Source: Escherichia coli
GTDB taxonomy: Bacteria > Pseudomonadota > Gammaproteobacteria > Enterobacterales > Enterobacteriaceae
Length of the DNA: 64,000 bases
Direction: 5' to 3' (one strand)
Assembly: GCF_003334785.1 (NCBI RefSeq)
Contig: NZ_QOWV01000004.1
The position numbers and the translations under genes were made by a program. The notes under the pieces were generated by a model. The model made no database searches. It was not told the DNA's origin and saw nothing but the letters and a program-made list of their open reading frames with translations. Below, piece by piece: positions 3,285-3,821 of this stretch; positions within the stretch are counted from its first letter, which is position 1; every line of letters starts with the position of its first letter.

Positions 3285-3821
3285 TTACCCCCGTCCAAAC
3301 TCCAGCCGCTGCACATTCACCATCCCAGGCTTCTCAGCAGCACTGACATCAATTTGTGTCACCCGCAGCGCATATTTTTCATCCAGTGCGTTTAACCATT
3401 TCAGCAGGTCATTAAACACCACAGGTTCTATCCAGACCTGAATATTCTCCCCACGATCGGCTATCCGCCTGATGACCACCGAGTGCGCGGAAGCACTGTC
3501 ACTGATGACCCGCGATACCTGCGCAGGCGTTGTTGTGGCAGATTTTCGCGCTGCAATAATATCCGGCGCGGCGTTCTTCAGTCGGGTGTTCATCGCCACC
3601 AGCTGCTGCAATATTGTCTCCTGTTGCTCAATCCGTTCGCTCAACGGCTGCCAGATGAGGACGTAATATCCGACGCTAAACAGGAACACCACCGCTGCCA
3701 GTAACATGCCCTTTTCACGCGGAGAACGCCCCGCCAGGTGTTGTGCCAGCCAGTGTTCGCCACGGCTTAACTGGCGTTCACGCCATTGCTGAAAATAGTG
3801 AATAAATTTATCGCGTAACAT
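3285..3821 (-). CDS. yghD: Type II secretion GspM-like protein (YghD-like)
   Basis: 178-aa ORF with N-terminal membrane helix and GspM-like pattern (W.PL.ER ... VWI.P..F ... RLEFGRG). Confidence 0.8.
   Translation of the reverse strand: MLRDKFIHYFQQWRERQLSRGEHWLAQHLAGRSPREKGMLLAAVVFLFSVGYYVLIWQPLSERIEQQETILQQLVAMNTRLKNAAPDIIAARKSATTTPAQVSRVISDSASAHSVVIRRIADRGENIQVWIEPVVFNDLLKWLNALDEKYALRVTQIDVSAAEKPGMVNVQRLEFGRG

Follow-up and report, generated by a model that had tools for sequence, protein, structure and literature searches.

A lone yghD gene as the very likely last survivor of the pheV-adjacent T2SS-beta locus of Escherichia coli after a 39-kb microhomology deletion

Introduction

Intact T2SS-beta/SslE systems are present in the Escherichia coli strains ETEC H10407, EPEC E2348/69, W and B, and the substrate of the system, SslE, is a mucinase that has been proposed as a broad E. 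coli vaccine antigen. The other type II secretion system (T2SS) of the species, T2SS-alpha, which secretes ChiA, has a GspL/GspM pair like T2SS-beta but is encoded in a separate locus near rpsJ and bfr. The intact sslE-pppA-gspS-beta-gspC..L-yghD locus represents the ancestral state of T2SS-beta; located beside the hypervariable pheV, it has been argued to undergo repeated, independent loss (PMC3707838). Among these losses, an internal gspD-K deletion has been described in K-12 (PMC3707838), whereas O157:H7 carries an independent deletion that extends from the side of the pheV island to within the 3' part of pitB, so that the neighbour of gss is a pitB lacking its C-terminus.

Here we analyze a 64-kb stretch of E. 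coli DNA (hereafter, the window) which retains GspM-beta alone of the ancestral locus, without SslE. The window locus resembles the K-12 remnant (yghD-yghE-yghF-yghG-pppA-yghJ) in that both encode an identical YghD (WP_000942785.1), are adjacent to pheV and have been disabled by deletion. However, K-12 has suffered the internal loss of gspD-K only and keeps fragments of gspC and gspL, yghG, pppA, yghJ, glc and an intact pitB, whereas in the window approximately 39 kb are gone, 55 nt of gspL are left, and pitB is truncated and fused. The locus is thus not a remnant of the K-12 type: the genes kept in K-12 are absent from the window and the breakpoints differ. The O157:H7 allele differs as well, in that its homology to pitB starts at window position 4033 rather than 3871, the deletion is bounded by IS3/IS66 sequences, and yghD is also removed; in strain NE122 (segment positions 6443-8236), the IS3/IS66 fragments lie beside a pseudogene with a TcdA/TcdB-type glycosyltransferase domain. 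Because the O157:H7 breakpoint differs from the joint in the window, pitB must have lost its 3' end from the pheV side in at least two independent events. We found no description of the present deletion in the literature, including a full-text search for yghD together with pitB; judged by titles and abstracts, papers in which yghD is mentioned seem to include it only as one entry of a list or as a boundary of the pheV island.

Results

The yghD gene of the window is an ATG-started open reading frame (ORF) on the minus strand (3285..3821) that encodes 178 amino acids. The NCBIfam model NF007274 (GspM family type II secretion system protein YghD) matches the product over its full length (1-178/178) with 407.8 bits, well above the curated cut-off of 352 bits, and the Pfam model T2SSM (PF04612) is matched with E=2.6e-46 over model positions 3-159 of 160. 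A Kyte-Doolittle scan, from which the topology is predicted by simple hydropathy, detects a single hydrophobic segment at approximately residues 37-60, the bitopic pattern of GspM-like proteins. The protein is 100% identical to YghD of strain WL7562, which has an intact cluster, and the same RefSeq accession, WP_000942785.1, covers the YghD of the strains that carry the deletion described below, of full-cluster strains and of K-12. Judged by its sequence, the ORF, which the preliminary description had called GspM-like, is unambiguously GspM/YghD (gspM-beta), and it is intact.

That description also noted that the start codon of this gene follows, by one nucleotide, the stop codon of a pitB-like gene. 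The spacing is real, but the stop codon is the native one of gspL and the pitB gene is not intact. The gspL stop is the TAA at 3823-3825, separated from the yghD ATG by base 3822 alone, the native 1-nt spacer; in WL7562 the gap is the same (gspL end at 20774 and yghD start at 20772 in the compared segment), which identifies the apparent pitB stop one nucleotide before yghD as the native gspL/yghD junction. Preceding yghD is a 55-nt 3' remnant of gspL (3823..3877, minus strand), recognized by homology to the intact gspL side up to 3877 and by a C-terminus equal to the tail of the fusion protein. The remnant, which reads ...GCGGAGGAAATAACATG, contains the last 15 GspL codons after a shared Leu-Gln, the stop codon and, 7 nt 5' of the yghD ATG, the GGAGG that forms the ribosome-binding site of this gene. 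The remaining part of gspL and the rest of the operon have been deleted, but the native stop, the 1-nt spacer and the 55 nt of gspL together prove that yghD derives from the end of a gsp operon.

The ORF that terminates at this stop codon (3823-5268, minus strand, 481 amino acids) joins residues 1-466 of PitB in frame with residues 378-392 of GspL. The pitB portion (3871..5268, minus strand) comprises codons 1-466 of 499, as indicated by the PitA/PitB model match, the reading frame, hydropathy and the RefSeq pseudogene annotation. The PitA/PitB model covers the fusion ORF only at model positions 1-467 of 498, and the hydropathy profile shows that, with the loss of 33 residues (467-499), the last hydrophobic segment of PitB (residues 469-499) is gone, so that the C-terminal transmembrane helix of an intact PitB is absent; the new tail of 15 GspL residues is hydrophilic. 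In every inspected carrier, PGAP/RefSeq annotates pitB as a pseudogene with an incomplete C-terminus. The fusion protein is probably inactive, and because the 481-aa "pitB" ORF is a chimera, the pseudogene annotation should stay. A tblastn match of GspL reached back to residue 332 (45.8%, 72 aa), but only its 17-residue LQ...RRK tail, which is identical, was accepted. The rest was rejected as a spurious, gapped run into PitB sequence; between the two copies of the shared heptamer described below, the DNA flanks show no homology.

The breakpoints were mapped against WL7562, a strain with the entire T2SS-beta cluster, in which the gene order is pitB-yghTSRQ-(spt/lptFG-like cluster)-yghO-glcC-glcDEFGBA-sslE-pppA-gspS-beta-gspCDEFGHIJKL-yghD. 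In BLAST alignments, window positions 5600..3871 match the pitB side of this interval with 100% identity and positions 3877..3000 match the gspL/yghD side with 99.7% identity, the two alignments sharing exactly 7 bases, 3871-3877. Comparison of both parental copies places the deletion joint (3871..3877, minus strand) at this 7-bp microhomology, GTTACAG (CTGTAAC on the plus strand). In intact genomes, GTTACAG occurs once in pitB (codons 464-466) and once in gspL (codons 375-377), and because its codon phase does not differ between the two genes, the reading frame continues across the joint. The distance from heptamer to heptamer is 38,995 bp in WL7562 and, by coordinates, approximately 38.9 kb in strain 214-4. 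When the flanks of the pitB and gspL copies were compared, similarity beyond the 7 bp was negligible, and no IS, att or island sequence was found at the joint. The reverse polarity, under which the 39 kb would have been inserted later in the other strains, was rejected since the joint splits two otherwise conserved genes. Within the interval that is deleted in the window, WL7562 carries between yghR and yghO (segment positions 9903-18911) what resembles a lipid cluster of the sphingolipid type, with genes for a serine palmitoyltransferase (spt), a fatty acyl-AMP ligase, an acyl carrier protein, LptF/LptG-like permeases and an epimerase; the window lineage has lost this cluster too.

The absence of the operon partners, pointed out in the preliminary description, holds for the entire 64-kb window. 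A tblastn search with SslE, PppA, GspS-beta, GspC, GspD, GspF-K and GlcB/D of WL7562 yielded, apart from yghD itself, only the GspL tail; gspE was left out of these queries because it is a pseudogene in WL7562. A blastn search with the whole deleted 39 kb, gspE included, produced only two REP-like matches of approximately 35 bp. The window therefore lacks what a functional T2SS-beta would comprise, that is, the secretin, the ATPase, GspF, GspC, GspL, the pseudopilins GspG-K, PppA, GspS-beta and SslE. In the annotated genomes of strains E2, ML35, NCTC9100 and Z1323CEC0007, yghD is likewise followed directly by the pitB pseudogene. Beyond the upstream side of the pitB fusion, the window contains gss, yghU and the hyb operon, as in K-12. 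As for gspE-beta of WL7562 (segment positions 39506-40999), the annotated pseudogene has an internal stop, so the T2SS-beta of this strain may be non-functional by another route.

The search for a gsp cluster was extended beyond the locus, and in the close relatives E2 and Z1323CEC0007 it recovered a complete, unrelated T2SS-alpha (gspB, gspA, gspC-M and gspO, by rpsJ and bfr/chiA), which has its own gspL and gspM. Its GspM is a protein of 153 aa, and a pairwise comparison with YghD reveals no significant similarity (E=0.57). No second copy of yghD was found: with yghD-containing queries, the E2 chromosome matched at one site, without another copy of the yghD end of T2SS-beta.

Among 5,426 complete E. 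coli genomes, a 551-base query finds the full-length joint in 40 and a 1,251-base query finds it in 41; identity is 100% throughout, except for one mismatch in one carrier. The sources of the carriers range from humans, chickens, pigs, a dog and a crow to cucumber, lettuce and wastewater, and among the carriers are the old collection strains ML35, NCTC9100, NCTC9087 and O157:H16 98-3133. To the right of the joint, carriers differ by 1-3 SNPs in 6-8 kb; between WL7562 and the window, identity amounts to 100% in yghD and to 99.9% in the flanks. The genomes closest to the window are those of the Korean chicken isolates Z1323CEC0007/8, with 100% identity over positions 1-3900 and, for Z1323CEC0007, one mismatch in 5,489; E2 is more distant, the first 16.3 kb showing 67 mismatches. 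The joint fits a single deletion inherited within one lineage, given that it is identical base for base and that its flanks are nearly identical. The CTGTAAC joint (window 3871-3877) can serve as a handy PCR or k-mer marker of this lineage.

In the same set of genomes, yghD is found over at least 80% of its length in 4,196 of the 5,426, with no match whatever in 1,139 (21%), and gspD-beta at the same minimum coverage in 3,246; approximately 950 genomes, many of them K-12 derivatives, have yghD without a near-full-length gspD-beta. The gene is intact, and the protein identical, in all inspected carriers but one. The exception is AST198 (segment positions 1-6092), which has the same joint with yghD cut to its first 93 nt; the insert beside this stub, which looks like a Mu-like prophage, has genes for a large transposase, a Gam-family protein and an AAA ATPase.

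On the opposite side of yghD, the window contains 22 nt (3115..3136, plus strand) that duplicate the 3' end of the pheV tRNA-Phe gene, one G shorter than in K-12; matches to K-12 start here, at 3115, under the tRNA-Phe annotated in that strain. This fragment marks the right, attR-like boundary of an island that occupies window positions 1-3114. It is followed by the retained pheV terminator hairpin (3145..3173, plus strand), a terminator-like site with the same sequence as after pheV in K-12. ARAGORN detected no complete tRNA in the window, where pheV is represented by the 22-nt fragment only. The island end carries radC/JAB, DUF987, yeeU/cbtA toxin-antitoxin, DUF957 and DUF4942 genes. The islands on this left side vary among the carriers, being of the Ag43 type in E2, with ISSfl8 in ML35 and NCTC9100, and with LEE/intimin-beta in Z1323CEC0007.

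With regard to expression, the pitB upstream intergenic region (5269..5559, minus strand) is unchanged, the window being 100% identical to the intact strain over 3871-5600. A consensus scan for promoters and terminators across 3000-5600 gave no more sites than in shuffled sequence; one sigma-70-like match (5335-5307) was weak and did not surpass those in the shuffles, and no terminator-like site lay between the stop codon of the fusion and yghD. We infer that the region upstream of pitB would drive any transcription that now reaches yghD.

Discussion

Taken together, these observations make it very likely that yghD is the last survivor of the pheV-adjacent T2SS-beta locus after a 39-kb microhomology deletion, and that it persists as a neutral relic. 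A single illegitimate recombination between the two GTTACAG copies, in the ancestor of a minor, widely distributed lineage, very likely accounts for the seamless removal of approximately 39 kb. Most of gspL, gspC-K, gspS-beta/yghG, pppA and sslE/yghJ were lost, together with the glc operon, yghO-T and 33 codons at the 3' end of pitB. The secretion machine was thereby deprived of its SslE substrate, prepilin peptidase, pilotin, secretin, ATPase, pseudopilins and GspC, GspF and GspL.

For the surviving gene, the consequences would be twofold. The promoter region of the operon, upstream of sslE/gspC, would have gone with the deletion, so that yghD could be transcribed only by read-through from the pitB promoter; a little YghD may thus be produced, most likely to no use. 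GspL pairs with GspM to give a stable binary complex, which is needed for the inner-membrane platform (PMC3815138, citing Michel 1998, Sandkvist 1999), and the cognate GspL-beta is absent from the window, where tblastn finds its tail only. A bitopic YghD without its GspL partner would have no machine to work in, and the gene would simply await decay. In these strains, yghD is most likely a functionless remnant.

One could alternatively suppose that yghD has been kept because it was co-opted, either as an extra or alternative GspM for T2SS-alpha or as a membrane partner of the PitB fusion expressed from a phosphate-regulated promoter. The ORF is indeed intact and preserves a good GGAGG site, the 1-nt gap and the lack of a terminator between the two genes make co-transcription and translational coupling plausible, and the approximately 950 genomes that hold yghD without an intact gspD-beta could be read in the same way. 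Nevertheless, we find co-option improbable. In the close relatives, T2SS-alpha owns a GspL/GspM pair, and YghD has no significant pairwise similarity to its GspM. The gene appears dispensable, as it is truncated at the phage-like insert in AST198, missing from 21% of the genomes, and in some 950 others left without near-full-length gspD-beta; O157:H7 lost it in an independent deletion. Its retention is fully explained by the position of the microhomology. An intact yghD in the carriers is expected for a recent deletion and would be compatible with selection too, but the carriers are so alike (100% identity) that conservation among them is not informative, and intactness in the other carriers carries no weight. 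Still less credit can be given to a more specific version, in which the deletion created by chance a two-gene unit, a PitB-GspL chimera coupled to YghD behind a phosphate transporter promoter, and either this pair or YghD together with T2SS-alpha gained a use.

Returning to the neutral relic as the preferred reading, the cause of the deletion can be considered. The locus lies 150 bp from the boundary of the pheV island, pheV is a known hypervariable site, and IS elements flank the loss of this locus in O157:H7, all of which might point to the island itself, through imprecise excision or an IS-mediated event, in place of microhomology recombination. This origin is very unlikely: the left breakpoint falls within gspL, approximately 740 bp from the pheV fragment, and the right one within pitB, neither IS, att nor island sequence accompanies the joint, and the islands vary among the carriers while the joint is constant. 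The deletion thus appears to have been a microhomology event in which no IS element or att site took part. Finally, a mis-joined contig that hides the gsp cluster between gspL and pitB, the assembly error against which the preliminary description had cautioned, has next to no probability, there being no supporting evidence for it, whereas the same joint recurs in 40-41 independently sequenced complete genomes from various laboratories, hosts and decades, the clean 7-bp microhomology offers no repeat or IS element to mislead an assembler, and the E2 chromosome is matched at one place only by the 551- and 1251-base queries.

The allele is one more independent loss of T2SS-beta/SslE beside pheV, a pattern documented for K-12, Crooks and O157:H7. 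It is mildly curious for its in-frame PitB-GspL chimera and because pitB has repeatedly been eroded from the side of pheV. From their gene content, the carriers, which include ML35, several NCTC strains and LEE-positive chicken isolates, are predicted not to secrete SslE, and they would also be devoid of the glc-encoded glycolate oxidase, malate synthase G and glycolate permease as well as of a functional PitB.

The island of Z1323CEC0007 (segment 1-43516) encodes a complete LEE type III secretion locus, intimin beta, Tir, Ler and an Ag43-type adhesin. Given that the closest genome has the LEE in the same pheV island, the source of the window is probably an atypical EPEC-like strain without the SslE/T2SS-beta that is used by prototype EPEC.

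Several minor features of the window were noted in addition. E2 has an insertion of ISVsa5 (IS4/IS10-like) at a site corresponding to window positions ~38107-38115, between the gene for an AraC-family regulator and ygiW, an insertion that the window lacks; the aligned segments share 9 bp at this site, as for a target-site duplication. In the E2 annotation, yghX (window ~15753-16637) and the fimbrial gene yqiI (~58190-59260) are frameshifted pseudogenes. Searches with Rfam models identified Sib antitoxin RNAs opposite ibs toxin genes (62312-62461 and 62687-62836, minus strand), an FMN riboswitch upstream of ribB (53467-53615, minus strand), and two REP-derived naRNA4 elements together with the ES173 sRNA (8521-8597, 19567-19637 and 25418-25481), all of which are ordinary features of the E. 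coli core genome.
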